Origin: Candidatus Omnitrophota bacterium
GTDB lineage: Bacteria; Omnitrophota; Gorgyraeia; Gorgyraeales; Gorgyraeaceae
Reading direction: 5' to 3'
Assembly: GCA_042571405.1 (NCBI GenBank)
Contig: JBHPHU010000002.1
Coordinates: 2,787 to 66,786, forward strand
Length of the DNA stretch: 64,000 nucleotides
Shown here: positions 6,665 through 64,000 of the stretch, one piece after another
How positions within the stretch are numbered: position 1 is the stretch's first letter
Layout: each line of letters opens with the position of its first letter
The notes under the pieces: generated by a model
Database searches by the model: none
Told to the model about the DNA's origin: nothing
What the model saw: the letters and a program-made list of their open reading frames with translations, nothing else
Position numbers and translations under genes: made by a program

Positions 6665-6676
6665 AGGAGGCTGAAG

Positions 6677-48373: not shown

Positions 48374-48379
48374 CACATT

Positions 48380-49218: not shown

Positions 49219-49227
49219 CCCCATGAC

Positions 49228-49255
49228 TTGAAATTCTGGGATTGTGTGATATACT
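49228..49255 (+). promoter_or_regulatory. Putative promoter with extended -10
   Basis: TTGAAA (49228-49233), 16-nt spacer, TGaTATACT (49247-49255), about 80 nt upstream of ORF 49337. Confidence 0.45.
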
Positions 49256-49336
49256 TTATATTGAATAGAAGGATGGCATTTTTTTATTTAGCTCAGTTAA
49301 AAAGATTTAAAAAGTTTTAAGTGAGAGGATTAAGAG

Positions 49337-49702
49337 ATGAGAGAGCTAATTTTTAAGAACCTGACTTCAGGAGATAAGAAGAGAAAAGACCTCTTTATCT
49401 CTGAGACTGTAGAGAAAAAAGGCGTCAAGACTACTACACAGCGCCATTCCATGTACGTAGTCAATAACTGCAACAAATTTGCCACCCAAAAGGAGTTACT
49501 AGAGTGGCAGAACAAGACATGCCAGGATCATAATAAACGCCATATCTTCATATTCAAGAGTCGTGATAGCAAGACAAAAAAGGATAGCTTTGTCTGTGAC
49601 GTAGTGGGTAAGTTTTACGCTGTTGTAAATAATGATGTGTATTCAGTGGCATTCAAGCATTCTTTAGAGATAGATTTTATGAGCGCAAAAAAGGATATTT
49701 AA
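49337..49702 (+). CDS. Hypothetical protein (121 aa, basic, no recognised family)
   Basis: Has its own promoter-like element, a GAGAGGA RBS, and is followed by a strong intrinsic terminator. Confidence 0.6.
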   Translation: MRELIFKNLTSGDKKRKDLFISETVEKKGVKTTTQRHSMYVVNNCNKFATQKELLEWQNKTCQDHNKRHIFIFKSRDSKTKKDSFVCDVVGKFYAVVNNDVYSVAFKHSLEIDFMSAKKDI

Positions 49703-49738
49703 CGCAACGGTGATACTGCACTGCTTTCTCCTTGGTTG

Positions 49739-49773
49739 CCCTGCCCTTTACGAATAAAGGGCAGGGTTTTTTT
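49739..49773 (+). terminator. Rho-independent terminator
   Basis: CCCTGCCCTTTA-cgaa-TAAAGGGCAGGG followed by TTTTTTT. Confidence 0.9.
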
Positions 49774-49780
49774 GTATAAA

Positions 49781-49824
49781 CCCCTGTACAGACGCGGTGT
49801 CTAGACACCGCGTCTGTACAGGGG
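49781..49824. repeat. 44-nt perfect palindrome ('CTGTACAGACGCG' family, copy 2)
   Basis: CCCCTGTACAGACGCGGTGTCT|AGACACCGCGTCTGTACAGGGG. Shares the core CTGTACAGACGCG.TGTCT with 16608-16654. Confidence 0.85.
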
Positions 49825-49883
49825 CTAAGTTCTATTGACTACACTGGCTGTATATGTTAAACTTTACCCATTACGGAGGAAAG

Positions 49884-50876
49884 ATGAAAATAGCTGTATT
49901 AGGAGATGGTAGCTGGGGAACAGCCCTTGCTATACTCTTGAAGAACAAAGGCCTTGATGTTTCTCTCTGGGGAGCATTCAGGGATAACATTGACGCTATA
50001 AAGGAGCATGGAGAAAACAGGAAATTTTTGCCTGGTGTTAAGATCCCTAAGGATATCCAGGTTGCCTCAGATATGACTGTTGTCTGCGAGGATGCAAGTC
50101 TAATTATACTGGCCATACCTTCGCGTTTTTTAAGAGAAATCCTAACGAAACACAGAGACTTGCTAAGAGAATCGAGAGCTATTCTTGTCAGTGTGATAAA
50201 AGGCCTTGAGCAAAAGACGCTTAAAAGGATGAGTGAGGTAATAACCAGTGTTTTAGGAGAGAAAGACCTTGTGGTTCTGTCAGGCCCAAGCATAGCGCCT
50301 GAAGTAGCCAGGGGCATACCAACAGCTGTTACAGTCGCGTCTGAGGATGATGGTTTGGCGCGCAAGGTAAGAGATATTTTCAGGACAGAGACTCTCAGGG
50401 TCTATACAAACAATGATGTTGCGGGCGTAGAGCTTGGAGGCGCGCTCAAGAATATCATAGCGATCGCGGCTGGCATCTCAGATGGTCTTGGCTTTGGCGC
50501 CAATACGAAAGCAGCCATACTTACAAGGGGTCTTATGGAGATGACGCGTCTTGGCATAGCCATAGGCGCAAAGCAGGAAACCTTTAGCGGTTTGAGTGGC
50601 CTGGGTGATCTGGTAACGACCTGCGTAAGTAAAGAAGGTCGTAATCGTAGCTTTGGCGAGGACATAGGAAAAGGCAAGAAACCCGAAGATATTCTAAAGA
50701 AAAGTGTCATGGAAATAGAAGGAGCCTGGACATCAAAAGCAGCGCTTGACTTGGGCAAACTCCGCAAAATAGAACTCCCAATCACACAGCAAGTCTATTC
50801 AGTGATATTCGAACAAAAACCAGCCCTAAAAGCAGTAAACGAACTAATGCTCCGCGAACCCAAGCCCGAATCCTAA
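49884..50876 (+). CDS. gpsA: NAD(P)H-dependent glycerol-3-phosphate dehydrogenase
   Basis: KIAVLGDGSWGTALA and GALKNIIAIAAG. GGAGGA RBS precedes ATG 49884, which is preferred over the track's 49854. Confidence 0.93.
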   Translation: MKIAVLGDGSWGTALAILLKNKGLDVSLWGAFRDNIDAIKEHGENRKFLPGVKIPKDIQVASDMTVVCEDASLIILAIPSRFLREILTKHRDLLRESRAILVSVIKGLEQKTLKRMSEVITSVLGEKDLVVLSGPSIAPEVARGIPTAVTVASEDDGLARKVRDIFRTETLRVYTNNDVAGVELGGALKNIIAIAAGISDGLGFGANTKAAILTRGLMEMTRLGIAIGAKQETFSGLSGLGDLVTTCVSKEGRNRSFGEDIGKGKKPEDILKKSVMEIEGAWTSKAALDLGKLRKIELPITQQVYSVIFEQKPALKAVNELMLREPKPES

Positions 50877-50897
50877 GCCTTCTCAAAAGTCCATTTC

Positions 50898-50969
50898 TGT
50901 GGTATAATTAATATTGATAAGCATAGTAGCTATATAGCCTTACAAGGCTATTTTTATGGGTGGATTATG
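50898..50969 (+). promoter_or_regulatory. Reiterated leader cassette, copy 1 (full: extended -10, hairpin, invariant core, start codon)
   Basis: TGgTATAAT (50900-50908); GCTATATAGC palindrome; hairpin ATAGCC-ttacaa-GGCTAT (50934-50951); TTTTTATGGGTGGATTATGA with uORF ATG at 50956 and main ATG at 50967. Confidence 0.75.
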
Positions 50970-52619
50970 ATGGGGATTGGAAAAGGGTTGAGCTTTAAGA
51001 TTGTAACTATTTGTATGAGCATTTGCTTTATTTTTAATGCCAATGCTTATTCTATGTCTAAATTAAGAATTAATTCAATGGGAGATGATATTGAAGGAAG
51101 TATGGAACGTAAAAGAAAAGAAAGCATGTTATCAGAAATGACAAGAATTAAAATCATAGAGTTTTTGTCAAAGCCTGATAATGATAAGGGATTGATAGAT
51201 AATGGATTGGATTTATTAGATTCAGTACAAGACCCTAGGGATATTATGGAGATTATTGAGAGTGCATTCGCTCGTAGAAAATTGAGATTGTATTTGTGTA
51301 AAAAAGGAATTTTCGGAGACACAGGTACACCTATGGATATAAGTAACATACTAAAGGATAGCATTGAATCAGGGGCTTATAACATAAAAATTATTCCTGA
51401 TGGCGGTAGCGAGATGATAGGCGCACGTGATTTTAGGATAAACGTAAAAAAGAAAATTATGACCTTTTCCGCTGGTTTTATATACGAGGAAAATCTAAGA
51501 GGGAAACGTTTTTTTGGTATGCTCTATAGATGGATGTTTGCATTACCTTGTTTTAGTAATTGTTCTGGATGGGAGTTCAAAATTACAAAAAGCAAATTTA
51601 CTAATGAAGTCACAGAAGATGAGAAATATGAAGAAAATGTTGCAAGTTATATGTCAGCCAGGGCATGGTGGCGCACTAGACTTCCTATAGAGATTACTTC
51701 GAAAAAAGGTATAATAATACAAGATATTGACGAGATTGAACCAGGAGAAGAATATTACATTAAAGGTAGATTTTTAAATTGGGAAGATAGGCTAGCTTAT
51801 CTCGCTTCAATATACACTTCTACTAATGACAAGACAAAGTTTGCGTCGTTCGAGAAACTCCTCACAGAGTTAAAGCCATCTATTATTGAAAAGATGATGG
51901 ATATGCCTACCCTTGTTGCTTTCCTATTAGGTCTTAAGCCGGCGCATTATACGTATAACTCCGAAGAAGATGGCTCAGATGTCATAGAGGCAATTATGGC
52001 AACAACTGCTTCCCAGAAGAAATTCCATACATTTCCTGAACAGTTAAGTAAAAGCTATGTTTTGTATAACCCCGAGGCAGTAAGAAATGCAATTTTTGAA
52101 CTGAACATGTTGACAAAGGACGAAAAAATAGTCGAGCGTGTCATGAAGAATATCTGGGAACTTGCAAATGGTGACTCAAGAAAGATAAACATAGAGATCT
52201 TCAGAGAAAGCGTTGAAAATCTCTTGCCGAAACAATTTCCGGAAGAACCGGAAGAATTTCTGCAGAAAATATTAGATGCATCCGCCCTTCGAGTCGGTTC
52301 TGTAAGGAGCGTTACTCAGGCTGATTCTTTTGCTCGGGGATTTATTCTTGGCATTCCATTTATAGATTCGATATTATTTTGTATTGATAAGAGGGGCCTA
52401 ATATCTGCTGTTTCCACAGAGAAGTCACTTTCTGGTATTCGATATTTAAATAAGGGCCCAATCCATCGCATAGAGTATATTATTTTTTCACAGGAATTTA
52501 TTGAACGTCTAAGAGCATGGGATAAGGCGCTTGAGTTTGCCTATGAATTAATGGAGAGACAACTAGAGGATAAGAAGCTTCAAGAATGGTTACAGAAGGA
52601 ATCCAATATGTGTCTCTGA
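50967..52619 (+). CDS. Leader-family secreted/membrane-anchored protein A (550 aa, no recognised domain)
   Basis: N-terminus MMGIGKGLSFKIV plus hydrophobic segment ...NANAYS..KLRIN is shared with five paralogs. The remainder is novel. Confidence 0.75.
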   Translation: MMGIGKGLSFKIVTICMSICFIFNANAYSMSKLRINSMGDDIEGSMERKRKESMLSEMTRIKIIEFLSKPDNDKGLIDNGLDLLDSVQDPRDIMEIIESAFARRKLRLYLCKKGIFGDTGTPMDISNILKDSIESGAYNIKIIPDGGSEMIGARDFRINVKKKIMTFSAGFIYEENLRGKRFFGMLYRWMFALPCFSNCSGWEFKITKSKFTNEVTEDEKYEENVASYMSARAWWRTRLPIEITSKKGIIIQDIDEIEPGEEYYIKGRFLNWEDRLAYLASIYTSTNDKTKFASFEKLLTELKPSIIEKMMDMPTLVAFLLGLKPAHYTYNSEEDGSDVIEAIMATTASQKKFHTFPEQLSKSYVLYNPEAVRNAIFELNMLTKDEKIVERVMKNIWELANGDSRKINIEIFRESVENLLPKQFPEEPEEFLQKILDASALRVGSVRSVTQADSFARGFILGIPFIDSILFCIDKRGLISAVSTEKSLSGIRYLNKGPIHRIEYIIFSQEFIERLRAWDKALEFAYELMERQLEDKKLQEWLQKESNMCL

Positions 52620-52729
52620 GAACGGATTTTTGGAGATGTCTACCAAGTTGTAAAGGAAGTTGTCTTTGAGGTGTATAGGATTTGGAATTTCAGGGTATTT
52701 GAGGTATAATATGTAAAAAAGGAGGAACC

Positions 52730-53200
52730 ATGAAGAGATTAGCGTTATTCTTATTATGTCTTAGTTTGGTTGGAGGTATTGCTGTTGCGGCAGAGAATGA
52801 ACTTCTTGAAGGGCAGAGGATCTGCGATATGAAATTCCGAAAGGTCGTTATTTTAGGTGAAGGCATAACTAATCAGGTGGCCTTTCAATACTCTACTTCA
52901 TACAGGGCAGTAGTGTGGCATAAAGAAGAGACCAGTCCGGGTATAAAAGAACCAGGCCCTGCCATGAAGGAACTTATAGTCGAACTGCAGGGCATAAATG
53001 CCACAGAAGAAGAGTGGGAATTTATAATTCCCGGAATCGCGGAGGAATTTTTCTTCGTTACTTTGAAGAATATGGATAATGATTCTTTGTCTAAAGTCAA
53101 AGGCACGGTATATCTGCCTGATTCTTCGAAAAATGATTCTATAGAAGCCGGGATTAAAAGAGTCTCCAATGGAAGATTTGTCGTAATATACGGCCGCTAA
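52730..53200 (+). CDS. Small secreted hypothetical protein (156 aa)
   Basis: Classical signal peptide MKRLALFLLCLSLVGGIAVAA|EN. AAGGAGG RBS and a TATAAT box (52703-52708) upstream. Confidence 0.7.
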   Translation: MKRLALFLLCLSLVGGIAVAAENELLEGQRICDMKFRKVVILGEGITNQVAFQYSTSYRAVVWHKEETSPGIKEPGPAMKELIVELQGINATEEEWEFIIPGIAEEFFFVTLKNMDNDSLSKVKGTVYLPDSSKNDSIEAGIKRVSNGRFVVIYGR

Positions 53201-53275
53201 TTTTATAATTGTGTTATTTGGGGTTACGCCACTTGTTGCAGTGCCCGCCTCTTGATACAATAAGATTATTCAGAT

Positions 53276-55930
53276 ATGAAAAAAAATATTATTTTGTGTA
53301 TTATAGCTTTGATTTTATTCTATGGAATAGCGGAAACCTCCGTTAGTCTTTTTAATTTCGACTTAAATCTCCCCAGGTATTTTAAATTTGCGGATCGATT
53401 TCAGGTAGATCCTGGTTTTAGTGGAGGATTTTTTAAAAAAGATAGCCGGGTCTTTTGGCGCGTAAATAAAGATAAATCCGCTGATATTAATTCACAAGGA
53501 TTCAGGGATTCAAAAGAAATAGATTCTTTTAAAAGAAAGGATACTTTTAGAATAGTATGCATAGGAGACTCTGTGACTTTTGGAGTCCCGATAACATTGA
53601 ATAGGAGCAGAGATACCTTTCCTAAGCTATTGGAGAAATCATTAAATCAGCTTCAGATGCGGAAAAATTTTGAAGTTATAAACGCGGGAGTGCCGGGCTT
53701 TACTTCCTATCAAGGTTTGCAATATTTAAAATATTACCTTATAAAATACAAACCAGATTTAGTAATTTCTCAGTTTGAAATTAATGATGCTGCAGAGGCT
53801 CTTTACTTTGCAGATAAAGACCAGAAATTGCAGCCGGACTGGTCGATAGCAGCGCAAAATTTTCTGAACAAAAGTAAATCCTATCGATTATTAGGGAAAA
53901 TTATTTTTTATGTAAAGTATAGATTTTTTTGTAACGCTGACAACTGTAAGGGAAACAAAAAGAGAGTTACTCCTGATGATTACAAGAACAACTTAAGAGA
54001 AATGATAGAAATAGGCAAAGAAAATGGTTTTAAAGTAATATTTTTACCCCCTGTATTTTTCGAACCAACTGAAAAAGAATTAGAAGGAAGAATTTCTACA
54101 AATAAAAAATACTCTTTCCCAAAAGAAGCCTTGTACGTGGATACCTACAGTGCTTTTAAAAAAAGAGAAGCAATAGCAAGAAGCCTTTTTTTCGATGACT
54201 GTCATTTGACCCCCGAGGGGCATAAAATATTAGCAGAAGAGATACTTAAGCATTTGACAGAAGCGACACTTTTATCTAATAATTTTTCCCATCCATCCAA
54301 TCTTAGGGTCCCTATTATAGAGGATGAAGAAAAAATAAAAAAAGCATCAGGCAAGATCAATGCGCGAAAGTTATTAGACGAATATGAGCAGGATATCATG
54401 TATTTTACTGCTATTAGCGAAGTAGCTAGAAAAAAAGGAGACGTATTAGCCATACTAAGGCCTTCTACCAGAAAGATATTTGAAACATTAATTGAGACCC
54501 CAGGAGATGACTTGCAGAAAGTAGTAAATTTTGACGAAAAGCTTTTTTTTGAAGTCCATACTGCCTTGCGCTCAAAATGGGGCATAGAATTTATTAAAGA
54601 GAATCCGCTGCTCGTTAATGAAAAGTTAGAGATAAGTGATTCAAACAAAACAACTGTATTGCTGTTCAGGATCATGCAAGCCTGCGCATTTAAGCGGCTA
54701 AACCTGCCTGAAGACGAAATCAATACACTGCAGCAGTATATAATATTATCGTACGATTCATTAAAAATAGCAGATGAAAAGACTGCCAAAGCAAAGTATT
54801 TGCTTAAAGCAAAAAAGCCGCAACCAGATAAAAAGCTTATTGATAAATATCAAAGTGTTTTTTATGACATGTATGTTACAACGATTAAATACATGGGCAA
54901 GAGAGCGAATGAGAATATGTTTGGATACGGAGATTCAACTGTATTAACGGGATATATTTTTGGAAGCTTTGGAATGGGTAGCTATATAGAAGAATATAAA
55001 CTTATTCATATTATGGCAATGATGGAAGCTTATGGGGGAGTATATGAGCTTCTTAGAGGCAACCCTGAAAGAGCTATAGAGCAATTCAAAACAGCTTTGC
55101 GCTCAGAGGATTTTGATCCAAAGATAATCCGTCTAATTCAAGAAGAATTAAGATGGATGCATGAGAATAATTTAGACGGTGCTGAAGAAGCGATAGAGGG
55201 CATAAATAACTTTCTGGGATCTCTTTACCTTAAAGATGTCACATTGCTTACACTGAAGGAGAAGATTGAATGGAAGGATGAATGGGGTAACCTAAGTACA
55301 AACGCGGTAAAAGCGGCAGAAAAGTACATGCTAGAATGGGAAACAACAGAGGAGGAGGATGATTTATTGGTATTTGATAAGTTTTTACCAGGAGCTAAGT
55401 TTCAGATGCAGCTCGGCAATGATAACATAACTTTACCGTCACCAGAGGCTATAGAGATTTTCCAGGCAACATGTAAGATAAATTTTGATTGGGGTGCCTG
55501 TATGATCGTTACTCCCTATCCCATTGTGCATGGACTAATGGAGTATATAATTCGAACGGATCATGAAAAGGCATATCTGGCCGCAGTCATTGACAGGGCA
55601 ATTGAACTTTTAGATGAAGATCTCAAAGTAAAATGTATAAATAAAATATTTAAAGTAACATATATTAAGAAGGAATTCTTAAATAATTTTGCACGATTAG
55701 TTGGCGTAAAGTTTTTAGCCCTCCTGAAAAATTTAGATGAAAAGAGCTTAGGATTTATTATGAATAATTATTATCTAGATAAGAGGCATTACGAAAAATA
55801 TATTTTTGATGAAGTTTTAGACAAAAAACCAGGTACAATTAGATATCTTGATCCAGGAACTCTCCAATGGCTTGGAATACCCCAAGATATAAACCTCGAT
55901 AAAAATAGAATCATCAACGCGTCTTCCTAA
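53276..55930 (+). CDS. Membrane-anchored SGNH/GDSL hydrolase with long helical middle region and a ~220-aa C-terminal module shared with 60737..62278
   Basis: N-terminal TM segment. SGNH blocks: IGDSVTFG (I), FEINDA (III), DDCHLT (V, DxxH). The C-terminal WKDEWG...LPGAKFQ...FDWGA module is paralogous to gene I. Confidence 0.8.
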   Translation: MKKNIILCIIALILFYGIAETSVSLFNFDLNLPRYFKFADRFQVDPGFSGGFFKKDSRVFWRVNKDKSADINSQGFRDSKEIDSFKRKDTFRIVCIGDSVTFGVPITLNRSRDTFPKLLEKSLNQLQMRKNFEVINAGVPGFTSYQGLQYLKYYLIKYKPDLVISQFEINDAAEALYFADKDQKLQPDWSIAAQNFLNKSKSYRLLGKIIFYVKYRFFCNADNCKGNKKRVTPDDYKNNLREMIEIGKENGFKVIFLPPVFFEPTEKELEGRISTNKKYSFPKEALYVDTYSAFKKREAIARSLFFDDCHLTPEGHKILAEEILKHLTEATLLSNNFSHPSNLRVPIIEDEEKIKKASGKINARKLLDEYEQDIMYFTAISEVARKKGDVLAILRPSTRKIFETLIETPGDDLQKVVNFDEKLFFEVHTALRSKWGIEFIKENPLLVNEKLEISDSNKTTVLLFRIMQACAFKRLNLPEDEINTLQQYIILSYDSLKIADEKTAKAKYLLKAKKPQPDKKLIDKYQSVFYDMYVTTIKYMGKRANENMFGYGDSTVLTGYIFGSFGMGSYIEEYKLIHIMAMMEAYGGVYELLRGNPERAIEQFKTALRSEDFDPKIIRLIQEELRWMHENNLDGAEEAIEGINNFLGSLYLKDVTLLTLKEKIEWKDEWGNLSTNAVKAAEKYMLEWETTEEEDDLLVFDKFLPGAKFQMQLGNDNITLPSPEAIEIFQATCKINFDWGACMIVTPYPIVHGLMEYIIRTDHEKAYLAAVIDRAIELLDEDLKVKCINKIFKVTYIKKEFLNNFARLVGVKFLALLKNLDEKSLGFIMNNYYLDKRHYEKYIFDEVLDKKPGTIRYLDPGTLQWLGIPQDINLDKNRIINASS

Positions 55931-55941
55931 AGTCTTATTTA

Positions 55942-56014
55942 TATGGTATAATTATAGTTAGATAAGCATAGCAGCTATATAGCCTTACAAGGCTATTTTT
56001 ATGGGTGGATTATG
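55942..56014 (+). promoter_or_regulatory. Reiterated leader cassette, copy 2 (full)
   Basis: TGgTATAAT (55944-55952), ataagcatagcaGCTATATAGCCttacaaGGCTATTTTTATGGGTGGATTATGA, main ATG at 56012. Confidence 0.75.
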
Positions 56015-56845
56015 ATTAGGATTGGAAAAGGGTATAATTTGAAGATTACATCTTTAGCAATAGTTATGATACTATCTTTTACAGGGATTGTATATCCAAC
56101 TCCCAATTTAAAACAAATTTTGCGTTTACCTACAGGACAGGCAGATGACACATTTGTCCGAATAAAAGCAGCTTACATCAGAGATGTTTTGCAGCAGCAC
56201 CCAGAACTCAAAGCTTATCTCCTTGATGATAAAAATACAGAAATCCGTCTTGTAGCTTTAGGTGAAAAACCAGCCTATTGGAGTTACGGCGCTAAGGCGC
56301 AAGATGAATTACGAATAATTAAGGAAATCTCAGAAAAACTAGATCTGCGATTTATTCAGTATCAATATGGCACTAAAACTTCATGTTTTATTTACGACCC
56401 TAAATCTTTAGCAAAAGTATTTTTTCAATACAAAGAAGAGCTCTTAGATGAAAATAATTATTTGCCTGCGCAGGAAGCTCTACCGAGTCCTGTAAGTTTT
56501 TTTAAGGCAATAAACTTAGAAACTATTATTACTGATGGAGTATCGGTAGAAAAAGAAACCCAGCTTATGCACCTTGACAAATTCTTAATAGCTATTTGCC
56601 AAAGAGGTAAAGCTAATAGAAGTGAAGGCGAACCTTTTCCAATAGGCATAGCAATGGGCTATAATCTTGAATGGGTGCGGGTAATCTTAGAGAGACGGAA
56701 AGGAAAACACGTTATATATCATAGCATTTCTTCTCGCCGGCATAGTATTTGGTTTTTTTCAGCAGATAAATCATCCGGTGACGCATTATTGGAACGATGG
56801 ATAAAGATGGCAGAGGCAGGAAAAGATATCATTTCTATGATATAG
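56012..56845 (+). CDS. Leader-family secreted protein D (277 aa, no recognised domain)
   Basis: N-terminus MIRIGKGYNLKI plus hydrophobic segment ...VYPTP..LRLP. Confidence 0.75.
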   Translation: MIRIGKGYNLKITSLAIVMILSFTGIVYPTPNLKQILRLPTGQADDTFVRIKAAYIRDVLQQHPELKAYLLDDKNTEIRLVALGEKPAYWSYGAKAQDELRIIKEISEKLDLRFIQYQYGTKTSCFIYDPKSLAKVFFQYKEELLDENNYLPAQEALPSPVSFFKAINLETIITDGVSVEKETQLMHLDKFLIAICQRGKANRSEGEPFPIGIAMGYNLEWVRVILERRKGKHVIYHSISSRRHSIWFFSADKSSGDALLERWIKMAEAGKDIISMI

Positions 56846-56850
56846 TTGCG

Positions 56851-56878
56851 CAGGGGCTATTTTTATGGGTGGATTATG
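56851..56878 (+). promoter_or_regulatory. Reiterated leader cassette, copy 3 (promoter-less, right half only)
   Basis: caggGGCTATTTTTATGGGTGGATTATGA follows directly after the stop of gene D. The left hairpin arm is reduced to ATAG, supplied by D's last codons. Confidence 0.7.
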
Positions 56879-57616
56879 AAAAAGAATAAAAAAGTATTGG
56901 CAGCCATATTTATGCTAATAGAGATAGTTTTTCTGTCTAACCTTGCATATTCAGAAGGAACATTCCTGCGCGTACCGCTTATAACAAACAAGAAATATAT
57001 CGAAATAGTAAAAGAAAACAAGGTTTCGGTTAGGCAAACAGAAGAGCTATATGCAAGAAAGTTTGAAGAAGTTTTATTAAAAATTTTAAACCCATTGTCA
57101 TTTGGGAAGCATGAAATAGAAGTGCCTAAATTTAGATGTGAGTTAGGTTTCTACATGCCTGACTGCGACAATAATCGCAGGGATTTGGCTATTCATGTAG
57201 TGAGGGAATTAGGAAAAAATTTATTAAGTAATTCTAAATCTGAGAGAGAAATACTCCTTCAACATATATACTATGATAACCATAAGGCGATAAGAATAAT
57301 ATCAAGAAACAGGGAAACCATCGAAACACCCATTGAATACTTATTGGACAAAAAAATGAAGATAGATCCTTTTGCTTTTGATGAACTGTCAGGAGCAGCT
57401 CTTTATTGGTTAAAAGAGTTTGCTCACATCAATAAGGGCATATTTTTTACTTTGGATAGCAATGGACAAAAGATGGAAGTTTCTTATGATAATATTGTTG
57501 AAAGCAAAGGAAACTATAAAGGCACAGAAATCCAGATGATAATTTTTACTCCTGCCATAGCCAAAAATACATTTTCGCTCAATGACATTAAAAACATTAC
57601 ACGCAGGGCACTATAA
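56876..57616 (+). CDS. Leader-family secreted protein E (246 aa)
   Basis: The start is fixed by the conserved core (ATG 56876; the track's TTG 56846 reads through the leader). Signal peptide MKKNKKVLAAIFMLIEIVFLSNLAYS..LRVP. Confidence 0.72.
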   Translation: MKKNKKVLAAIFMLIEIVFLSNLAYSEGTFLRVPLITNKKYIEIVKENKVSVRQTEELYARKFEEVLLKILNPLSFGKHEIEVPKFRCELGFYMPDCDNNRRDLAIHVVRELGKNLLSNSKSEREILLQHIYYDNHKAIRIISRNRETIETPIEYLLDKKMKIDPFAFDELSGAALYWLKEFAHINKGIFFTLDSNGQKMEVSYDNIVESKGNYKGTEIQMIIFTPAIAKNTFSLNDIKNITRRAL

Positions 57617-57768
57617 AACATCGCTACGTCTAATCTGGAAACATCTACGCAACTAGAGGGGGTCAGGTCTAGACATTCGTTATTCCGGATACACCCCGCA
57701 GTCTAACCTATGTCCAATCACAATCCCTTACCCACAACCTTCTAAGCCTCTTCCCAAACCCCTATTTA

Positions 57769-57841
57769 TATGATATAATTACATTACAATAAGCATGGGA
57801 GCTATATAGCCTTACAAGGCTATTTTTATGGGTGGATTATG
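57769..57841 (+). promoter_or_regulatory. Reiterated leader cassette, copy 4 (full)
   Basis: TGaTATAAT (57771-57779), ataagcatgggaGCTATATAGCCttacaaGGCTATTTTTATGGGTGGATTATGA, main ATG at 57839. Confidence 0.75.
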
Positions 57842-58267
57842 ATGGGGATTGAAAAAGGGTATAACTGGAAAGTCATGCCTGTGCTATTAGCAATAGTAGT
57901 ATTATATGCAAATATACTCTATTCTGCCCCAGAGTTTAATCTGCGCCCTCTGCTTACATTTTCTATGGAAGGAGACAACGAGAGGAATGAGGAAGAGAAG
58001 TTATTTATACAGCTTGTAGGCGAATCTCCTGTGCTTATGGATGTAGGAACGGATAGGGCAAGCTTTCTTTTTAAGGTTAATAAAATTTTACCCAAATCAA
58101 AGCTTTATGGTATAGATAAACACTCTATTAGTGAAAAGATTAAAATTGAAGCTGCTGGACATGGGATAGCTTTGACGGATCGTAGAGATTATGAAGATTT
58201 ATTAGGGGCTCCAGACCAAAAAGACAAATATGATGTAGTAACTCTTATTGCACCTATGAGCTTTTGT

Positions 58268-59710
58268 CAAATGTTGTGGATGAAGCCTCTAAGCAAAGCA
58301 TCCTTTCAAGTTCCATTTAAGCAGTTATCTCCTCAAGTTTTTCAGATTCCTTAACCATCAAACCATCCTTAAATTTCACACCTTCCCAGACCTGTTTTAT
58401 TTTTCTATGGCCTCTTAATCTGGACCATCGTTTTTGAGCAGATAGAATAAGCTTAAAGACCATTGTTAGTGTTGCGATCCTTGATCCACATCCTTTAGTC
58501 TTTACGGTTCTTAAGCGTACAGTAGAGAACGTGGACTCGATAACATTTGTGCTTCTAAGATGCACCCATTGCTGAGCAGGGTAATTATAAAAGCTAAGGA
58601 GTTTCTCACGATTATTCCTCAAACAGTCAACAGCCTTTGGGTATTTAGCTTCAAATTCTTCTATGAATATATTGAAGGCAATGTCCGCATCTTTTTTTGT
58701 GGGAGCCAGGTATATATTATGAATCATTGTCTTGGCTCTACCTTGAAGACTTTGAGGCAGTTTATCCAAGGCATTGGCTGTTTTATGGATCCAGCATAAT
58801 TGATGATTTGTCTCAGGGAATTCTTCTTGTAAGGCTGCCCAGAAGCCCAAAGAGCCGTCTCCTATTGATAGTTTTGGCCCTTTGGATAATCCCATGCGTT
58901 TTAACTCTCTCATAATAGACTGCCAACTCAACTTTGATTCCCTGAAGCCATCTACTATGGCCACTATCTCTTTTTTCTCTTTTTTACCGTCAGTCCTTGC
59001 GCCTATTATTACTAAGACGCATTGCCTGTCGTCATCAAGCCTCACGTTGAAATATATGCCATCTACCCACCAGTATACGTATTCTGTTTTAGAAAGGTCT
59101 CTATTTATCCATTCGTTATATTCCTTTTCCCAGATTTGTTTTAAGCGGACTATGTTTTGAGCTGATAAGCCTATAACCTGTTTTCCAAGGATAGATTCTA
59201 AAGCTTCTGTAAAGTCTCCAGTGGATATGCCTTTTAAGTATAGTACCGGCAAAAGCTCGTCTATATTCCTTGTTCTCCTTAAGTACGGCGGGATTATGCT
59301 GCTTTTGAAGCGTTTCTCTTTATGTTTAGATAATATCCTATCGTCAACCCTTGGAGTTCTTACTTCAAGCTGGCCTGCGCCTGTAATAATTCTTCTGGAT
59401 TTATTGTGCCCGTTACGCACTACCTGCCTATAGCCGTTATCATCCAGTATATACTGATACCCTTCCAGGAATAAATCCACTTCGATCTCTAATGCTTTTT
59501 TCAGCATCTCTTTGGCGCCTTCCCTTGCGATGTCATCCAGGGATTTTTTAACGATACTTTCCTCTGGACTTACCTTGAATCTAGAGGTATTATTATTCAT
59601 AGAGTATCCTTTCTTTTATGCGTGTCGCCTGACACGCTGGTTTGTGTTGTCTTATTTGAAAGGATACTCTTTTTCTATACTCTTTTCAAGCCTCCAATCC
59701 ACAACATTCG
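58268..59710 (-). mobile_element. IS256-family insertion sequence (~1.44 kb)
   Basis: Imperfect terminal inverted repeats: cAAATGTTGTGGATgaaGcCT (58268-) against the reverse complement of ...AGcCTccAATCCACAACATTcg (-59710). One transposase ORF fills the element. Confidence 0.85.
58317..59600 (-). CDS. IS256-family (Mutator-type) DDE transposase
   Basis: 427 aa. N-terminal ...DDIAREGAKEMLKKALEIEVDLFLE... and overall architecture are typical of the Transposase_mut family. The only credible minus-strand gene in the window. Confidence 0.9.
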   Translation of the reverse strand: MNNNTSRFKVSPEESIVKKSLDDIAREGAKEMLKKALEIEVDLFLEGYQYILDDNGYRQVVRNGHNKSRRIITGAGQLEVRTPRVDDRILSKHKEKRFKSSIIPPYLRRTRNIDELLPVLYLKGISTGDFTEALESILGKQVIGLSAQNIVRLKQIWEKEYNEWINRDLSKTEYVYWWVDGIYFNVRLDDDRQCVLVIIGARTDGKKEKKEIVAIVDGFRESKLSWQSIMRELKRMGLSKGPKLSIGDGSLGFWAALQEEFPETNHQLCWIHKTANALDKLPQSLQGRAKTMIHNIYLAPTKKDADIAFNIFIEEFEAKYPKAVDCLRNNREKLLSFYNYPAQQWVHLRSTNVIESTFSTVRLRTVKTKGCGSRIATLTMVFKLILSAQKRWSRLRGHRKIKQVWEGVKFKDGLMVKESEKLEEITA

Positions 59711-60388
59711 ATTATACCTCTTATGAAAAAGTAACCGAGTTTAAGTTTGTCGGGAATCCCGAAAAAGTAGAATCTAGCTATATGTTACCTGCATTTGAAG
59801 TATCAAAACAATATGAAAGGAATGGTCTTGGGCAGATTCTATTAGCTAAGCTTTGTGAGACAAGCATGAATGATTCAGACATAGGAGACATAATTGTTCT
59901 GGCCGAGGGACTTAGTCCTATAGGCAGGGATTACTTCAGGTCAAAGACAAAGACTGAAACCACTGGTTTTACAATTGAAAAAGGAGGGAAAGAGAGAGCA
60001 TGTAATCGCGTTGTAGATAGGATAGAAGCAGAGAGATTACTTAAACTCGCCTTAAGCAGACAGGATGAATCTAATAGGTTAGAAAAAGTCATTAATCGAA
60101 AAGTGACTAGCAAAACAATAGATTTTAATTTATAAAACTTGTATCTTCCTAACTCACCCAATCCCTCTATCATAATACCATGTCCTCTAACTACGATGAG
60201 CTTGTGTTCTTCTGGAAGGGTAAGGCGATAGTCTATGCCATTATGGCTAAGGATGGGCTCTGGTATGCTGTAGAGGTTAGCCAAGGACGGTTCTCGTGCC
60301 AATCTCAGACCTGTCTCCCAGCCATAATTATCTAACATCTCAGTCTACTCTAATTTAGCCAATATAATTTGAATCCTACAAATATGTA

Positions 60389-60397
60389 TGGTATAAT
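60389..60397 (+). promoter_or_regulatory. Extended -10 promoter element upstream of the tRNA-like fragment
   Basis: TGgTATAAT within aaatatgtaTGgTATAATccc. This is the same promoter flavour as the leader cassettes. Confidence 0.45.
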
Positions 60398-60438
60398 CCC
60401 TATCTGATAGAGTACTTGATTATGTTTAAGAATTTACA

Positions 60439-60478
60439 TCGGGGCGTGGCGCAGTTTGGCTAGCGCGCTTGAATGGGG
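60439..60478 (+). tRNA. Truncated tRNA-like 5' half (acceptor 5' strand, D-arm, 5' anticodon stem and loop; anticodon GGG, so tRNA-Pro-like)
   Basis: CGGGGCG-TG-GCGC-AGTTTGGCTA-GCGC-G-CTTGA-ATGGGGT. U8, the D-stem and G18G19 are intact. No complementary 3' anticodon stem, T-arm or acceptor 3' strand follows anywhere up to 64000. Confidence 0.5.
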
Positions 60479-60670
60479 TTGCCTTCCTGGCATTTTTTGT
60501 AACCCATTGAAATTCTTACAACTACAATAATCTACAATCACTTACAACAAATTTTCAAATGTATGCTCATGCCCCAATATGCCCGATTCTGTACCGTCCA
60601 TAGACACCATATGGACACCAAAAATTAACCTGAAATTAATCCGAAAATTTTCTTTCTAGAACCCCATTTG

Positions 60671-60739
60671 TATGGTATACTCACTTTAGATATACATGCT
60701 ATTATAGCCTTCCAGGGCTATTTTTATGGGTGGATTATG
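60671..60739 (+). promoter_or_regulatory. Reiterated leader cassette, copy 5 (full, divergent upstream half)
   Basis: TGgTATACT (60673-60681), GCTATtATAGCC, hairpin ATAGCC-ttccag-GGCTAT (60704-60721), TTTTTATGGGTGGATTATGA, main ATG at 60737. Confidence 0.72.
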
Positions 60740-62278
60740 AGTGAGATTGGAAAAGGTTATAGCGTGAAAGTCGTATCAGTAGCAATAAGTTTAGTATTAT
60801 TGTTTATGGATATTGGCTTTACATCTTCTCATATTCAAAACCTCCGTCTTCCACTGGGGCAACTTGACAAGGCAGAAGAAAAGAATAGAAAGATTGATAA
60901 TAATGCGAGTGTAAGTAATGGCTTTTCGCTTCCTCTTGTCCTAGCACTACAAGAATATGAGAAAAATATATATACGTTTTCGGAAATGGAAGACAATAGC
61001 GACAGGGAGTCAAAGTTAGTTTTTGAGTATGATAAGATTCTTAGAAGTTTAGCTGCAGAAGGATATTTGGATGGAGTGCTTATATATCCATTCATGGGTT
61101 CAGACTTACTGCCTGCAAAGTATTTTATAGAAACAATTCCTATAAACGACGACGCAAAAGATTTTAAACGTGGAGAGAAAATTATAAAGAGAGTTTATAA
61201 AAAAGCTTCTGAAGAGATTATTGCCTTAATTCGTTCGCGCATACGTTCTCGCAAAGCCTTGGATGTTATGAAAGAAACAACTTATCTAAACCAGGATTTT
61301 TTAAAATCAGATAGACCTAGATTTGTATTTCTTTTAAAGTGTTTCGATGTGTTTTCGGATGAGTATCCAGAAGAGGTAGTGCAAAAAGTGCTTAGAGTTG
61401 TTTTGGAACAGGTGTTACAAAAAGGAGACCGCATTTTAGTTTTACATAAGAAAGATGTATCCTTTATCCCAACTCTTAAAAAAGCAGGTTTTTCCTGTAT
61501 AGCTGAATATTATCCTTCGTCGTTAGCTTCCGAACTTACTATTCTTGTGCAAGAGGGGCCAACCGCTGTGACTTTTCCAGATGTCTTTGTTGTGATGGAA
61601 AAACTTGCGTCAGGTAAGAAGGTGGAATGGAAAGACAAATGGGGTAAACCAGACAGAGAAGCAATGAAGACTGCAAGTAGATACATCAAAGAATGGAAGG
61701 CAAAAAAAATGGAAGATTTGCAGATAATGGATAACCTGTTGCCTGGAGCTAAGTTTCAGCAACAACTCCTAAATGATAAAATCAAACCAGAATCGCAAGA
61801 CGCTATAGAAATTTTCAAAGCAACATGCAAAATAGATTTTGATTGGGGAGCTTCTATGTTATCGACTACTTCCGCAGGATTGCATGAAACAATTCATTAT
61901 ATGATTAAAGTCGATTATAATAGACCATACGTAGTAGCGCTGGTTAATAGAGCTATAGAGTTGCTAGAAGAAACATATAAAGTCGAATGCAAAGATGGAG
62001 TCTTTAATATAGAATATGATTTGATGAAATTCTTAAGCATTTTTTCTCCATTATCGCGGCCAGACATAAAGGGTTTTTTGAGTAAGCTAAATGAAAAAAG
62101 CATAGCATTTATTATAAACCAGTTTCATTTGAATGATAATCTTAGCCTGGATTATATTTTTGAGGCTGTATTAAAGACAAGACCAGAGGCAATTGATTTG
62201 CTTAGTGGAAAGGTTCGTAAACGGCTCAATCTACCCGAGATGAAAATACCAGATAAAGACTTACGGACGGATTCATAG
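60737..62278 (+). CDS. Leader-family secreted protein I (513 aa) with C-terminal module shared with 53276..55930
   Basis: MSEIGKGYSVKV plus hydrophobic segment ...GFTSS..LRLP. The last ~220 aa (VEWKDKWG...LPGAKFQQQL...KIDFDWGAS...) are homologous to the C-terminus of the SGNH protein. The start is set by the conserved core. Confidence 0.78.
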   Translation: MSEIGKGYSVKVVSVAISLVLLFMDIGFTSSHIQNLRLPLGQLDKAEEKNRKIDNNASVSNGFSLPLVLALQEYEKNIYTFSEMEDNSDRESKLVFEYDKILRSLAAEGYLDGVLIYPFMGSDLLPAKYFIETIPINDDAKDFKRGEKIIKRVYKKASEEIIALIRSRIRSRKALDVMKETTYLNQDFLKSDRPRFVFLLKCFDVFSDEYPEEVVQKVLRVVLEQVLQKGDRILVLHKKDVSFIPTLKKAGFSCIAEYYPSSLASELTILVQEGPTAVTFPDVFVVMEKLASGKKVEWKDKWGKPDREAMKTASRYIKEWKAKKMEDLQIMDNLLPGAKFQQQLLNDKIKPESQDAIEIFKATCKIDFDWGASMLSTTSAGLHETIHYMIKVDYNRPYVVALVNRAIELLEETYKVECKDGVFNIEYDLMKFLSIFSPLSRPDIKGFLSKLNEKSIAFIINQFHLNDNLSLDYIFEAVLKTRPEAIDLLSGKVRKRLNLPEMKIPDKDLRTDS

Positions 62279-62366
62279 CACCAGGTGATCTTGGGCTCAG
62301 ACTCGAGAATTGGAAATCAAGATTGATCAAAGATGTTTGCCATGTAGAAGTTACTCAACGAAGCAG

Positions 62367-62387
62367 AATTTTTATGGGTAGATTATG
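62367..62387 (+). promoter_or_regulatory. Reiterated leader cassette, copy 6 (core only)
   Basis: aaTTTTTATGGGTaGATTATGA has one substitution (GGA to AGA). No hairpin or promoter upstream. Confidence 0.65.
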
Positions 62388-63845
62388 ATGAGGATTGGAA
62401 AAGGATGTAAATTAGTTTTGATATTTATAGCAATAATCAGAATAGCCTATTCAGATTTAGGATATTCACAGACGACTTTACTACGCCCTGCCATTAAGTT
62501 TAATAACCTAGAATTATTGCACAGAATATATTCACAAGTTGAAAAAAATCTAAAAAAGCATCTTGATGTGCTTAGCAAGAAATATGAAGGTGGTATAATC
62601 CCAACTTACTTGCCTTTACCGACAGTTAGTTTTTTAACGACTGACAAAACAAATAGATATGAATATAACAGGGTAAAGAATGAAATAGTTTTTTATGTAA
62701 GAGAAGATATTGAAGAGGGAAATTTTAGAAAGATATGCTGGCTGGCTTATGGCGATTGGTTGTCTCAAAATGAAGCTGCCGAATATAACGGCGAAGGCTA
62801 CAATAATAGTGCCTGGAATTCCCCATATATAAATTACGTGAAGAGGAAGAAAAAATATATCAATCCAAATGAAATAAGAGATAAGAATATTCTTGATGTT
62901 GCAACAGGTGTAGGTATACCAGGGATTATATTAGCAGAAAGTGGAGCAGGAAAAGTTACCTGCCTTGATGTCTCAAGCATTATGTTGGAATTAGCAAAGG
63001 AGGAGGCAGATAAAAGGAAACTAGATAACATATTTTTTAAACAGGGTAGCATTTTTAAATTGCCATTTAATGATAATTCTTTTGATATGGTTTTCTTCCA
63101 TCTTTTTCTTGAAAGATCTCCAGAGGAGCTAAGGAGGGTAGCATTGTCAGAGATATTGCGAGTTTTGAAACCAGGAGGAAAGCTTAAATTTATGGAACGT
63201 TACAATGTTAGCCAACCTGCTCTTAATATAACAGGGCTTGGATGGGATAATGAAGACTGGTTGTATGAATTAAAAGAAGCAAAGTTCGAGAAAACATCGA
63301 TTTTATATAAAGAGAAGTTTTATTATGACGATTACCCTTCTGTTCTTAAGTCAGTTTTTTATATTATAGAGGCACATAAGCCACAGAATAATACCCAGAC
63401 AAAACTTGCGTTGGAAGAGGGGGCTACAAAAGAAACAGCAAGGCAATATGCAAAGGAAATCGTTGCAGACTTACAGAATAAATTAGGAAAGCGTTTAAAA
63501 GGTGTGGTATTCTTTAGCGGCATACAACCATTTAAAGGTGATAAAGATTATACAAAAGATATTGATTTATTGATAATAGTTGATGACGGAACTGAAATTC
63601 CAAAGGATTTACCATATTTGGATTCATCTGATTTGATTGTCATCTCTGTTAGTGAAGTCATAGAGCTGCTGGAAGGCAAAGGAAATAGATGGGGTGAACG
63701 CAATGATACTTTTAGGTTAATAATTTTAGGTGGCGGCGAGACATTACATGGACGAGAGTTTATTTTGTTATTAAACAGGTCGCTTGCCACAGATACTATT
63801 GCTGAGGAATTACTTAGTTTAAAAGCTATAAGGAACGATATATAG
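62385..63845 (+). CDS. Leader-family secreted protein J: class I SAM methyltransferase domain plus C-terminal minimal nucleotidyltransferase-like domain
   Basis: MMRIGKGCKLV plus hydrophobic segment ..YSQ..LLRP. MTase motif I ILDVATGVGIPG and VLKPGGKL. C-terminal GVVFFSG...DIDLLIIVDDG resembles the G[SG]-x(n)-DxD motif of pol-beta-type NTases. Confidence 0.78.
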   Translation: MMRIGKGCKLVLIFIAIIRIAYSDLGYSQTTLLRPAIKFNNLELLHRIYSQVEKNLKKHLDVLSKKYEGGIIPTYLPLPTVSFLTTDKTNRYEYNRVKNEIVFYVREDIEEGNFRKICWLAYGDWLSQNEAAEYNGEGYNNSAWNSPYINYVKRKKKYINPNEIRDKNILDVATGVGIPGIILAESGAGKVTCLDVSSIMLELAKEEADKRKLDNIFFKQGSIFKLPFNDNSFDMVFFHLFLERSPEELRRVALSEILRVLKPGGKLKFMERYNVSQPALNITGLGWDNEDWLYELKEAKFEKTSILYKEKFYYDDYPSVLKSVFYIIEAHKPQNNTQTKLALEEGATKETARQYAKEIVADLQNKLGKRLKGVVFFSGIQPFKGDKDYTKDIDLLIIVDDGTEIPKDLPYLDSSDLIVISVSEVIELLEGKGNRWGERNDTFRLIILGGGETLHGREFILLLNRSLATDTIAEELLSLKAIRNDI

Positions 63846-63927
63846 AATGATAAACTCAGAGTCAGACCTGGAAATTGGAAAATTAGCATTTTCTGTGCGC
63901 AGATTCAAAAACCGTTTCTGTTTATGC

Positions 63928-63956
63928 TTGACAAAGCTTTCTTAGTCGTATACACT
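63928..63956 (+). promoter_or_regulatory. Putative sigma70-type promoter
   Basis: TTGACA (63928-63933), 17-nt spacer, TACACT (63951-63956). Confidence 0.5.
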
Positions 63957-63975
63957 TATTTACAGAAAGGCAGAA

Positions 63976-64000
63976 ATGATGAAGCGATTAACTATCGACA
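63976..64000 (+). CDS. Start of an unidentified ORF (MMKRLTID...), truncated by window end
   Basis: GAAAGG lies 5 nt before ATG 63976, downstream of the promoter-like element. Only 8 codons are visible. Confidence 0.3.

Follow-up and report, generated by a model that had tools for sequence, protein, structure and literature searches.

The gene array in the last part of a 64,000-nt stretch of Candidatus Omnitrophota bacterium DNA (contig JBHPHU010000002.1; the whole stretch analysed is referred to as the window) raises a simple question: why should six genes whose products differ over most of their length be headed by one and the same block of leader sequence? Judging from comparison of the sequences, the best answer is that a family of predicted exported proteins specific to the Omnitrophota lineage has this block as its common 5' module. 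The block has a definite anatomy, with a hairpin that is maintained at the RNA level and a core that is constrained at the nucleotide level; it is strictly associated with one protein family, the members of which are mosaic in their construction and vary as a set between relatives. A full copy would supply its gene with a promoter and a transcription start site, with a hairpin acting in the messenger, and with a cleavable signal peptide for export.

The block contains a 20-nt core, TTTTTATGGGTGGATTATGA, which occurs exactly at positions 50951, 55996, 56860, 57823 and 60721, and with one mismatch at 62369. All six copies lie on the forward strand between 50951 and 62388, and none is found elsewhere in the 64 kb, where 0.01 matches would be expected by chance. 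Every copy ends in the ATG of an open reading frame (ORF), at 50967, 56012, 56876, 57839, 60737 and 62385; genes and leaders are numbered c1 to c6 in this order. These start codons, as well as the count of five identical cores and one with a single substitution, are those given by an earlier reading of the same DNA (the first-pass annotation). Alignment of the six regions also bears out its description of four full-length leaders (c1, c2, c4 and c5), in which an extended -10 element (TGnTATAAT, or TGnTATACT in c5) is followed by ATAAGCAT in c1, c2 and c4 or ATATACAT in c5, then by a GCTAT(T)ATAGC palindrome, an ATAGCC-N6-GGCTAT hairpin and the core. As had been noticed, the loop is changed in c5 with both arms intact (ATAGCC-TTCCAG-GGCTAT), c6 keeps the core alone, and the proteins downstream are alike only over about their first 45 residues. 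In place of the promoter and the canonical hairpin, c6 has GAAGCAGAA and a run of T, a sequence also seen in the related locus L051. One statement was wrong: c3, which was thought to have kept only the right hairpin arm, has both arms (ATAGTT-GCGCAGG-GGCTAT, 56842-56860) and forms the whole hairpin, with U-G in place of two C-G pairs. The repeat itself was correctly recognized but its length was understated, since the conserved block begins at a -35-like TTCCCA within CTTCCnAAAnCCCnATTTATATGGTATAAT and extends about 135 nt into the coding sequence. Also overlooked were the -35 region, the signal-peptide/LRxP segment of the proteins, the interruption of one gene by an insertion sequence (IS), and a tRNA-Pro(GGG) fragment ahead of c5 and c6.

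Copies of the block outside the window were obtained in two ways. Exact-pattern scans of genome and metagenome collections gave the related loci L003, L007 (identical to L011, which is Candidatus Zapsychrus exili, a member of the Omnitrophota), L024 (two copies) and L042; most 19-mer and 20-mer matches in the public collections were chance occurrences inside unrelated coding sequence. Further leaders (L047, L048-50, L051, L052-53, L054, L055, L056 and L057) were reached through the DNA of family proteins and of P0002 (L047), a homologue of the c5 protein, and were thus not chosen by nucleotide sequence. In all of these relatives the leader precedes a protein with the N-terminus of the family. 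A covariance model of the leader built from 11 copies finds 18 sites in all the sequence examined, each of them before a family gene, with no full-length match on the opposite strand; the association with a single protein family is therefore strict in the available data and holds in every contig examined. In the window, beyond the array itself, the model gives a single weak match, which is intragenic (42998-43048, 17.6 bits, E about 0.035). That sequence, CCTTACAAAGGCTGTTAACATGGGAGGTTATGAGG, lies in a long ORF (42505-43818) and resembles the loop, right arm and core of the leader; it is probably a chance match. The view that the leader belongs to no known riboswitch or leader class is sustained by the Rfam scan, which gave no match at gathering score in the whole window and none at the leaders even at E<=10 (50800-64000). 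Neither the leader nor the N-terminal family is mentioned in the Omnitrophota literature.

Is this conservation simply what a recent duplication would leave behind? We have calculated pairwise identity by segment for 12 full-length copies, of which the window supplied four and seven other contigs the remaining eight. In the core (positions -15 to +4) it is 1.00 within the window and 0.98 between genomes; the corresponding values are 0.94 and 0.77 in the hairpin, 0.68 and 0.63 in the 5' part of the untranslated region (UTR), 0.58 and 0.55 in the promoter, and 0.68 and 0.67 at +5 to +45 (codons 2-15). Beyond +136 identity is 0.50-0.53 within the window and 0.51-0.52 between genomes, as compared with 0.48 for random 60-mers drawn from the array region. 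The leader is thus a conserved island amid diverged sequence, the opposite of the trace that a recent segmental duplication leaves, and it is held by selection. A neutral legacy of recent duplication or gene conversion is accordingly, like the DNA operator considered in the next paragraph, largely refuted and retains hardly any credence with us: the flanks have diverged to the level of random sequence while the core is identical across genomes.

The next issue is whether the inverted repeat in the leader functions as RNA or as DNA, because the first-pass annotation had left the choice between a 5'UTR hairpin and an operator with three GCTAT half-sites. Over 16 copies the helix is paired in 97.9% of cells, and RNAalifold, run independently, recovers this helix only. 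Wherever the stem of an aligned copy is substituted, the change is a transition on one side that turns the pair into G-U: c3 has two C to U changes, L003a one C to U and one A to G, L024a and L024b an A to G, and L054 both an A to G and a C to U. L057 has gained an extra C:G pair and, despite a right arm that reads GGGUUG, still forms an 8-bp stem; stems of this length also occur in L054 and L056. In most copies the loop has 4-7 nt; that of L052 has 9 nt, and those of L054, L055 and L056 have 13-14 nt. The end of the hairpin is fixed at 16 nt before the AUG, and 5-7 U always come next. Of the two arms, the right one (GGCTAT) is almost invariant and the left one drifts. In c3 the hairpin is kept without a promoter and despite its overlap with the end of the c2 coding sequence. 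By our own estimate, which is not the result of a tool, five or more pairing-preserving events would arise by chance with a probability of about 1e-4 to 4e-3, given 1/6 to 1/3 for each. On these sequence grounds ATAGCC-loop-GGCTAT is best read as a 5'UTR RNA hairpin, maintained at the RNA level. It is true that GCTATATAGC is a perfect palindrome in c1, c2 and c4 and that the hairpin arms are also an inverted repeat in the DNA, two points in favour of an operator. However, the left GCTAT, which would be the third half-site, reads GCAAT or GCCAT in relatives and so is not conserved, and the spacing between the arms ranges from 4-6 to 14 nt, so that the test for fixed half-site spacing and symmetric conservation failed; moreover, the arm changes break the symmetry of the DNA and preserve pairing in the RNA. 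The left half-site variants, the variable spacing, the asymmetric G-U changes and the presence of the hairpin in the promoter-less c3 are together incompatible with an operator for a dimeric DNA-binding protein.

Other structures were considered and set aside. An outer helix between CAUAG and UUAUG (of the upstream or of the main AUG) is paired in 85% of cells, yet mostly through purine:U pairs; RNAalifold does not recover it, L054 and L047 lack it, and it can be entertained only tentatively. The CAU upstream of the hairpin is nevertheless conserved and could pair with either UUAUG. A CsrA-type site is rejected, the GGA not being in the loop, and so is a STAB-SD-like AGGAG near the 5' end, which is degenerate in the window copies (AGCAG, AGUAG).

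Downstream of the hairpin the order of elements is constant: a tract of 5-7 U, a Shine-Dalgarno sequence (GGGUGGA or AGGUGGA), AUU and the AUG. The other genes of the window have mostly Shine-Dalgarno sequences of the GGAG type, 6-10 nt from the ATG, and the ribosome-binding site of the family is therefore of a distinct type. Could the core be conserved because it is translated? Read in frame it would add an N-terminal extension (GYFYGWIM), but there are in-frame stops (TAG in c6, TGA in L007b and L048), a 1-nt insertion shifts the frame in L024b, and c1, c2, c4 and c6 have no upstream in-frame start codon, which together rule this candidate out. In c6 the stop, two codons ahead of the ATG, results from the single G-to-A change in its core (TTTTTATGGGTAGATTATGA, 62369-62388). 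Because of the in-frame stops and the frameshift, the constraint on the core must operate on nucleotides rather than codons.

The core also contains a minute upstream ORF (uORF), AUG-GGU-GGA-UUA-UGA, of four codons, which includes the Shine-Dalgarno sequence and the stop codon of which overlaps the main AUG (AUGA). It has been proposed here that this uORF is translated and that its ribosomes are handed over to the main gene. The uORF is intact in c1-c6, L003a, L007a and L007b, L024a and L024b, L042a, L048 and L055; the core variants (AGA in c6, GAA in L007b and L048) keep it open, L047 holds the frame with UUG and one extra codon, and the A after the ATG is kept in every sequenced leader copy except L056. 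On the other hand, the uORF start codon is lost in L024c, L042b, L054, L052 and L056, no Shine-Dalgarno sequence precedes the uORF, and the ATGA overlap is missing from some members of the family, those that start with ME, ML or MV. As far as the sequences tell, the uORF is common but not essential, and coupling through it is highly improbable.

The reading that we favour, although with somewhat less than even confidence, takes the block for a portable expression and export module that includes a post-transcriptional hairpin/U-tract/ribosome-binding-site unit. The full unit is predicted to consist of a strong sigma-70-type promoter (TTCCCA-like -35, 17-nt spacer, TGnTATAAT) and of a 5'UTR of about 45-55 nt, in which the hairpin of 6-8 bp is the only conserved structure. 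In the messenger, the hairpin, the U-tract and the Shine-Dalgarno sequence would act jointly as a fixed unit of translation initiation and insulation. The hairpin would fence off the RNA that lies upstream, be it the variable UTR of the gene itself or, in promoter-less copies, the end of the preceding ORF, and the U-rich tract and the Shine-Dalgarno sequence would thereby stay accessible to the ribosome, making initiation uniform whatever lies upstream. A C-terminal domain recombined behind such a module would be expressed and exported like all the others. As a side effect, hairpin and U-tract would form a weak intrinsic terminator, which may damp read-through in a packed, co-oriented array with few other terminators.

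Several observations weigh against this reading. The thermodynamic support is modest, with -7.4 kcal/mol and z = -3.0 for the hairpin and z from -0.4 to -2.2 for the whole leader, and besides the C:G pair inserted in L057 there is no two-sided compensatory change in the stem; given this lack of classical covariation, the stem may instead be recognized for its sequence. The initiation region does not appear uniformly open in ensemble folds, in which the probability of being unpaired is 0.28-0.78 for the Shine-Dalgarno sequence and 0.04-0.63 for the AUG, and the conserved CAUAG is predicted to pair with the start-codon UUAUG in several copies. Between 11 and 40 nt of predicted transcript precede the hairpin; since it is not at the predicted 5' end, a role as a classical 5'-terminal stabiliser is unlikely. 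Finally, insulation alone does not account for the invariance of all 19 positions of the core.

A stem followed by U residues also invites the opposite interpretation, namely that the leader is a regulated attenuator: a promoter-proximal intrinsic terminator would stop most transcripts about 40 nt after their start, perhaps with release of a small RNA that bears a terminator hairpin and U-tail, and a trans-acting factor would permit coordinated read-through. The layout of an intrinsic terminator (a G+C-containing stem of at least 5 bp and a U-rich tract) is there in the window and in relatives alike, and a consensus terminator scan flags 50934, 55979, 57806 and 60704, each with seven pairs, three of them G-C, followed by TTTTAT. 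All hairpin-bearing copies in all genomes examined have 5-7 U right after the stem, and to keep stem and U-tract while leaving the sequence and length of the loop free is the signature of an intrinsic terminator. Hairpin and U7 remain even in L052 (ACCUAUCUU) and L056 (GCCCAGAUU), where the Shine-Dalgarno sequence is lost, the stem reaches 8 bp in the three relatives named above, and a conserved ACAUAGGAGC in the upstream UTR might be a factor-binding site or a seed. Leader attenuators likewise place a stem and U-tract with a free loop between promoter and start codon. Here, however, most stems are very short and weak (three G-C pairs, -7.4 kcal/mol), whereas stems of 13-14 bp are seen in the genuine terminators of this DNA; the leader, with a length of only about 50 nt, has no recognizable ligand- or protein-binding domain; and RNAalifold, with its single helix, offers no conserved antiterminator or other competing fold, the outer pairings predicted for single sequences differing among copies. 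In addition, the U-tract is interrupted (UUUUUAU) in most copies, and c6, L051, L047 and L042b, which lack the canonical hairpin, keep the U-tract and the ribosome-binding site. We therefore regard attenuation as rather unlikely. A second conserved arrangement of hairpin, U-tract and ribosome-binding site exists in these genomes: near-identical strong terminator-like hairpins, AAGCCAATCTGGA...TCTGGGTTGGTTTTTT, are located at about 12200-12260 in L048 and 2330-2390 in L057, directly upstream of the ribosome-binding sites of small membrane or lipoprotein-like genes.

The excess conservation of the core could also be explained if the invariant 25 nt made up of the right arm, the U-tract, the Shine-Dalgarno sequence and the AUG were a translational operator bound by a dedicated protein or small RNA. 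An identity of 0.98 between genomes is far above what a generic ribosome-binding site needs, the right arm is nearly invariant against a drifting left arm, and L047 keeps right arm and U-tract even without a pairing partner. Yet neither the rest of the window nor the main related loci contain a complementary stretch of at least 11 nt, by which an antisense partner is rejected, and the arrays have no candidate regulator linked to them. The loop, variable in sequence and length, is not what is recognized, and the Shine-Dalgarno part of the supposed operator is wholly replaced in L052 and L056. An operator of this kind seems to us quite improbable.

The proteins encoded behind the leader share an N-terminus of the form M-x-[KR]-[IF]-x-K-G-Y, about 18 hydrophobic residues, [AG]-[YFW]-[SCAT] and, after another 3-9 residues, an invariant LR that usually continues with x-P (LRxP). 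In the window proteins the most hydrophobic 15-residue stretch falls within residues 7-26, with a mean Kyte-Doolittle value of 2.15-2.67. To judge by its composition this segment looks like a signal peptide of the Sec/signal-peptidase-I type with a conserved motif added; no Pfam or NCBIfam model covers it. A profile hidden Markov model (HMM) of the six window N-termini, searched against 1.84 billion cluster representatives at E<=0.001, matched 37 proteins of 47-642 aa, six of which are the window's own. The exhaustive HMM search was needed for this, as word-indexed searches with short N-terminal profiles returned nothing even at E<=10. The match begins within the first few residues in all but two proteins, P0021 and P0034, which carry an N-terminal extension called upstream.

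Beyond the shared segment the C-terminal parts are unrelated and most have no Pfam match. The domains that can be recognized are an S-adenosylmethionine (SAM) methyltransferase (c6), GNAT acetyltransferases, a calcineurin-like phosphoesterase with FHA, an M48-type peptidase and a beta-propeller, with a weak sub-threshold HATPase_c match in addition. The c3 protein gives a sub-threshold NleE-like match (E = 0.0026, 17.8 bits against a cut-off of 27); an AlphaFold model of it made without an alignment was discarded at a predicted local distance difference test score (pLDDT) of 36 and has no bearing on this hint, and sequence searches of the PDB returned no meaningful match to c2 or c3. The mosaic construction is clearest in c5, where residues 6-292 are 48% identical to P0002, the C-terminus of which is different, and residues 294-501 are 41% identical to the C-terminus of the GDSL protein encoded at 53276-55930. 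The latter gene has no leader; the module of about 210 aa that it has in common with c5 (55259-55885 and 61616-62239, respectively) means that family genes exchange domains with genes outside the family. An export signal in front of enzyme types normally found in the cytoplasm suggests effectors that act on another cell, a role that we infer from the sequences only.

There is some resemblance to the SVM effectors of phytoplasmas (PF12113; SAP11, SAP54), which combine a conserved signal-peptide motif with a location in mobile or mosaic regions of the genome (PMC8026896). Both are cases of a conserved N-terminal signal motif on otherwise unrelated secreted proteins, in the phytoplasmas those of a host-dependent bacterium. 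However, a promoter and a 5'UTR hairpin are not part of the SVM definition, the phylum is another one, there is no sequence relationship, and PF12113 (SVM_signal) was not matched in any Pfam scan.

How does the set of genes behind the leader change? The close relative L024, in which the ileS and gpsA products are about 91% identical in amino acids and the order of genes is unchanged, lacks c1 and has three different family genes at that site. This, together with the two-part mosaic of c5, confirms the cassette turnover of which the closely spaced repeats had raised the possibility. The boundaries of the c1 difference are not in the leader; they coincide with the gpsA stop codon and the promoter of the next gene. 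Between two family genes of L024 (about 6650-6960) there is a long G+C-rich inverted repeat, CCACCCAGACCACTGGCTCTCGGGG ... CCCCGAGAGCCAGTGGTCTGGGTGG, which does not occur in the window and looks like a miniature inverted-repeat transposable element or another structured element.

Part of the family lies beside remnants of a tRNA gene. In L042 an array of three family genes has on its left a promoter and a 46-nt fragment of the 5' half of tRNA-Pro(GGG), and on its right an intact tRNA-Pro(GGG) gene (5529-5606, minus strand). As a sequence layout this points to an island inserted at the anticodon stem-loop, its scar being on the 5' side of the tRNA. In the window an extended -10 promoter (about 60385) precedes a tRNA-Pro(GGG) 5'-half fragment at 60440-60483 (60385-60483 in all, forward strand), and a 41-nt block, CGGGGCGTGGCGCAGTTTGGCTAGCGCGCTTGAATGGGGTT, is identical in the window and in L007 (296-336). 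It covers the 5' half of the tRNA as far as the anticodon loop, lacks a 3' half, has an extended -10 promoter of its own and was not called as a tRNA by ARAGORN or Rfam. Only this left fragment is present in the window, followed by a direct repeat, c5 and c6; an intact tRNA gene would be expected past 64000, where the window ends. L007 is laid out likewise. The direct repeat, TGGRCACC-N3-4-TGGRCACCA, comes about 110-118 nt after the tRNA-Pro fragment in the window (AGACACCATATGGACACCA, 60602-60620, forward strand, about 115 nt past the fragment), in L007 (about 458-480) and in L042 (about 9020-9041, minus strand). It is found again in L048 (about 9894-9913) and, on either side of a family gene, in L055 (about 4144-4162 and 2040-2060), and may be bound by a regulator or, as an arm-type site, by an integrase. 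In islands targeted to tRNA genes the repeat is usually the 3' half of the tRNA. The L042 array is like them in being flanked by a tRNA repeat and an intact tRNA gene, and differs in that the repeat is a 5' half; neither here nor in the window is an integrase found inside these stretches, and in the window the right end of the putative island is not reached.

These surroundings bear on a further possibility, that the conserved 5'UTR is the target of a tyrosine recombinase which deletes, inserts or shuffles the cassettes. The precedent is the vsp/vpma (vsa) loci of Mycoplasma, where 72 nt conserved upstream of each start codon are the recombination site of the adjacent Xer1 (PMC2268961). Like the present array, they are clustered families with near-identical 5'UTR and signal-peptide regions, dissimilar mature parts and a conserved stretch just upstream of the start codon, in a locus prone to rearrangement (PMC2268961). 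Array content does differ among close relatives here, and small tyrosine recombinase genes (about 203-215 aa, Pfam Phage_integrase) are found upstream of family genes, directly so in L047 (117-728) and separated by a Fic-domain gene in L055 (140-787). The two recombinases, however, show no sequence relationship to one another, and neither has a homologue in the 64-kb window, so that a shared integrase is rejected. Whereas a Mycoplasma locus has one promoter and genes in both orientations, four of the six genes here have a promoter of their own and all are co-oriented; the Mycoplasma proteins are lipoproteins (AAKC lipobox) with repetitive antigenic parts, while these have an enzyme-like cargo and no lipobox, the relevant position being S, P, T or A in the window proteins and C only in some relatives, after F or Y. 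The Mycoplasma UTR is a DNA target of the adjacent Xer1/Mbr recombinase, as opposed to a leader whose G-U pattern and variable loops favour RNA over DNA. The known junctions fall elsewhere, that of c5 in coding sequence at residue 293 and those of the c1 difference outside the leader, and we consider a recombination site very unlikely. The sole mobility gene in the array is an IS256-type transposase; transposase genes also adjoin family genes in L052 and L054. Integron cassettes are different again, having attC at the 3' end and intI/attI, whereas the repeated element here is at the 5' end and includes the promoter; a repeat scan of 48000-64000 showed no repeat at gene 3' ends, although no search was aimed at attC or IntI. 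Overall, the nearest known systems are vsp/vpma and SVM; the locus shares the layout of both, fails their defining features, and adds an RNA hairpin/U-tract that is in no Rfam family.

The array can now be followed along the window, all features being on the forward strand unless stated otherwise. By inspection of the sequence, it is preceded by ORFs that resemble ileS, a DksA-like gene, lspA, a small ORF and gpsA. The predicted promoter of c1 (50880-50908; -35 TTCTCA, 17-nt spacer, extended -10 TGGTATAAT) begins 4 nt past the gpsA stop codon; then come the hairpin ATAGCC-TTACAA-GGCTAT (50934-50951; 7 bp with a UACA loop, -7.4 kcal/mol, then U5), the core (50951-50970; U-tract, GGGTGGA Shine-Dalgarno sequence, ATT spacer, ATGA) and the gene (50967-52619), which encodes 550 aa with a signal-peptide-like N-terminus and no Pfam domain. 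Two leaderless genes, 52730-53200 and the GDSL hydrolase at 53276-55930, each with an ordinary ribosome-binding region, separate c1 from c2. The predicted c2 promoter (55924-55952) has -35 TTCCTA, a 17-nt spacer and the same extended -10 as c1; its hairpin (55979-55996) and core (55996-56015) together span 55979-56015, and the gene (56012-56845) encodes 277 aa without a Pfam domain. The leader of c3 (56842-56879), which has no promoter of its own, consists of a hairpin (56842-56860), the left arm of which overlaps the c2 stop codon TAG (56843-56845), and the core (56860-56879), and is followed by a gene of 246 aa (56876-57616).

For c4 the predicted promoter (57751-57779) has -35 TTCCCA, a 17-nt spacer and extended -10 TGATATAAT, with the hairpin at 57806-57823 and the core at 57823-57842 (57806-57842 together). 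The gene (57839-60135) is split by an IS256/Mutator-family element on the reverse strand (58255-59723), bounded by imperfect terminal inverted repeats of 27 nt (58255-58281 and 59697-59723) and containing a transposase ORF (58317-59600), also on the reverse strand. Removal of the element restores the c4 frame, giving about 275-297 aa depending on the excision boundaries chosen; by eye, what remains has a methyltransferase-like part and a GNAT-like part. The predicted c5 promoter (60653-60681; -35 TTTCTA, 17-nt spacer, extended -10 TGGTATACT) is followed by the hairpin ATAGCC-TTCCAG-GGCTAT (60704-60721) and the core (60721-60740), 60704-60740 together, and by a gene of 513 aa (60737-62278), the product of which is identical to NCBI ACFL2G_00735, a protein encoded on a 70,346-bp contig of a Candidatus Omnitrophota bacterium MAG. 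The last gene, c6 (62385-63845), encodes 486 aa with a class I SAM methyltransferase domain after the shared N-terminus. The long ORFs of the window are on the forward strand (the IS transposase ORF being on the reverse), and GC skew is positive throughout; the housekeeping part has a GC content of about 0.42, which falls to 0.35-0.37 at roughly 52 kb and beyond, a drop that coincides with the variable array.

A more far-reaching interpretation combines several of these elements. Omnitrophota are suspected epibiotic parasites or predators, and the leader and N-terminus might together be an "effector tag" of this group, the hairpin and U-tract being a gated attenuator or a translational operator through which one RNA-binding factor would switch on a shuffled repertoire of effectors. 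The repertoire would comprise methyltransferases, GNAT acetyltransferases, an FHA phosphatase, metalloproteases and the protein with the weak sub-threshold NleE-like match, and IGKGY...LRxP would be a previously undescribed export or translocation signal, laid out like the RxLR and PEXEL host-targeting motifs. We regard this combination as decidedly unlikely, and return to the portable expression and export module as the reading that we tentatively prefer.

The significance of the locus follows from the fact that the Omnitrophota are uncultivated. The leader hairpin and core, together with the IGKGY...LRxP N-terminus, provide a searchable handle on a candidate repertoire of secreted enzymes, one that varies between close relatives and is found in part beside a tRNA-Pro integration scar. 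If the hairpin and U-tract should prove to be a shared post-transcriptional switch, they would represent a compact new class of cis-regulatory RNA extending over a whole regulon; otherwise, the family would still be a clean natural case of a portable promoter/ribosome-binding-site/signal-peptide module behind which protein domains are swapped.

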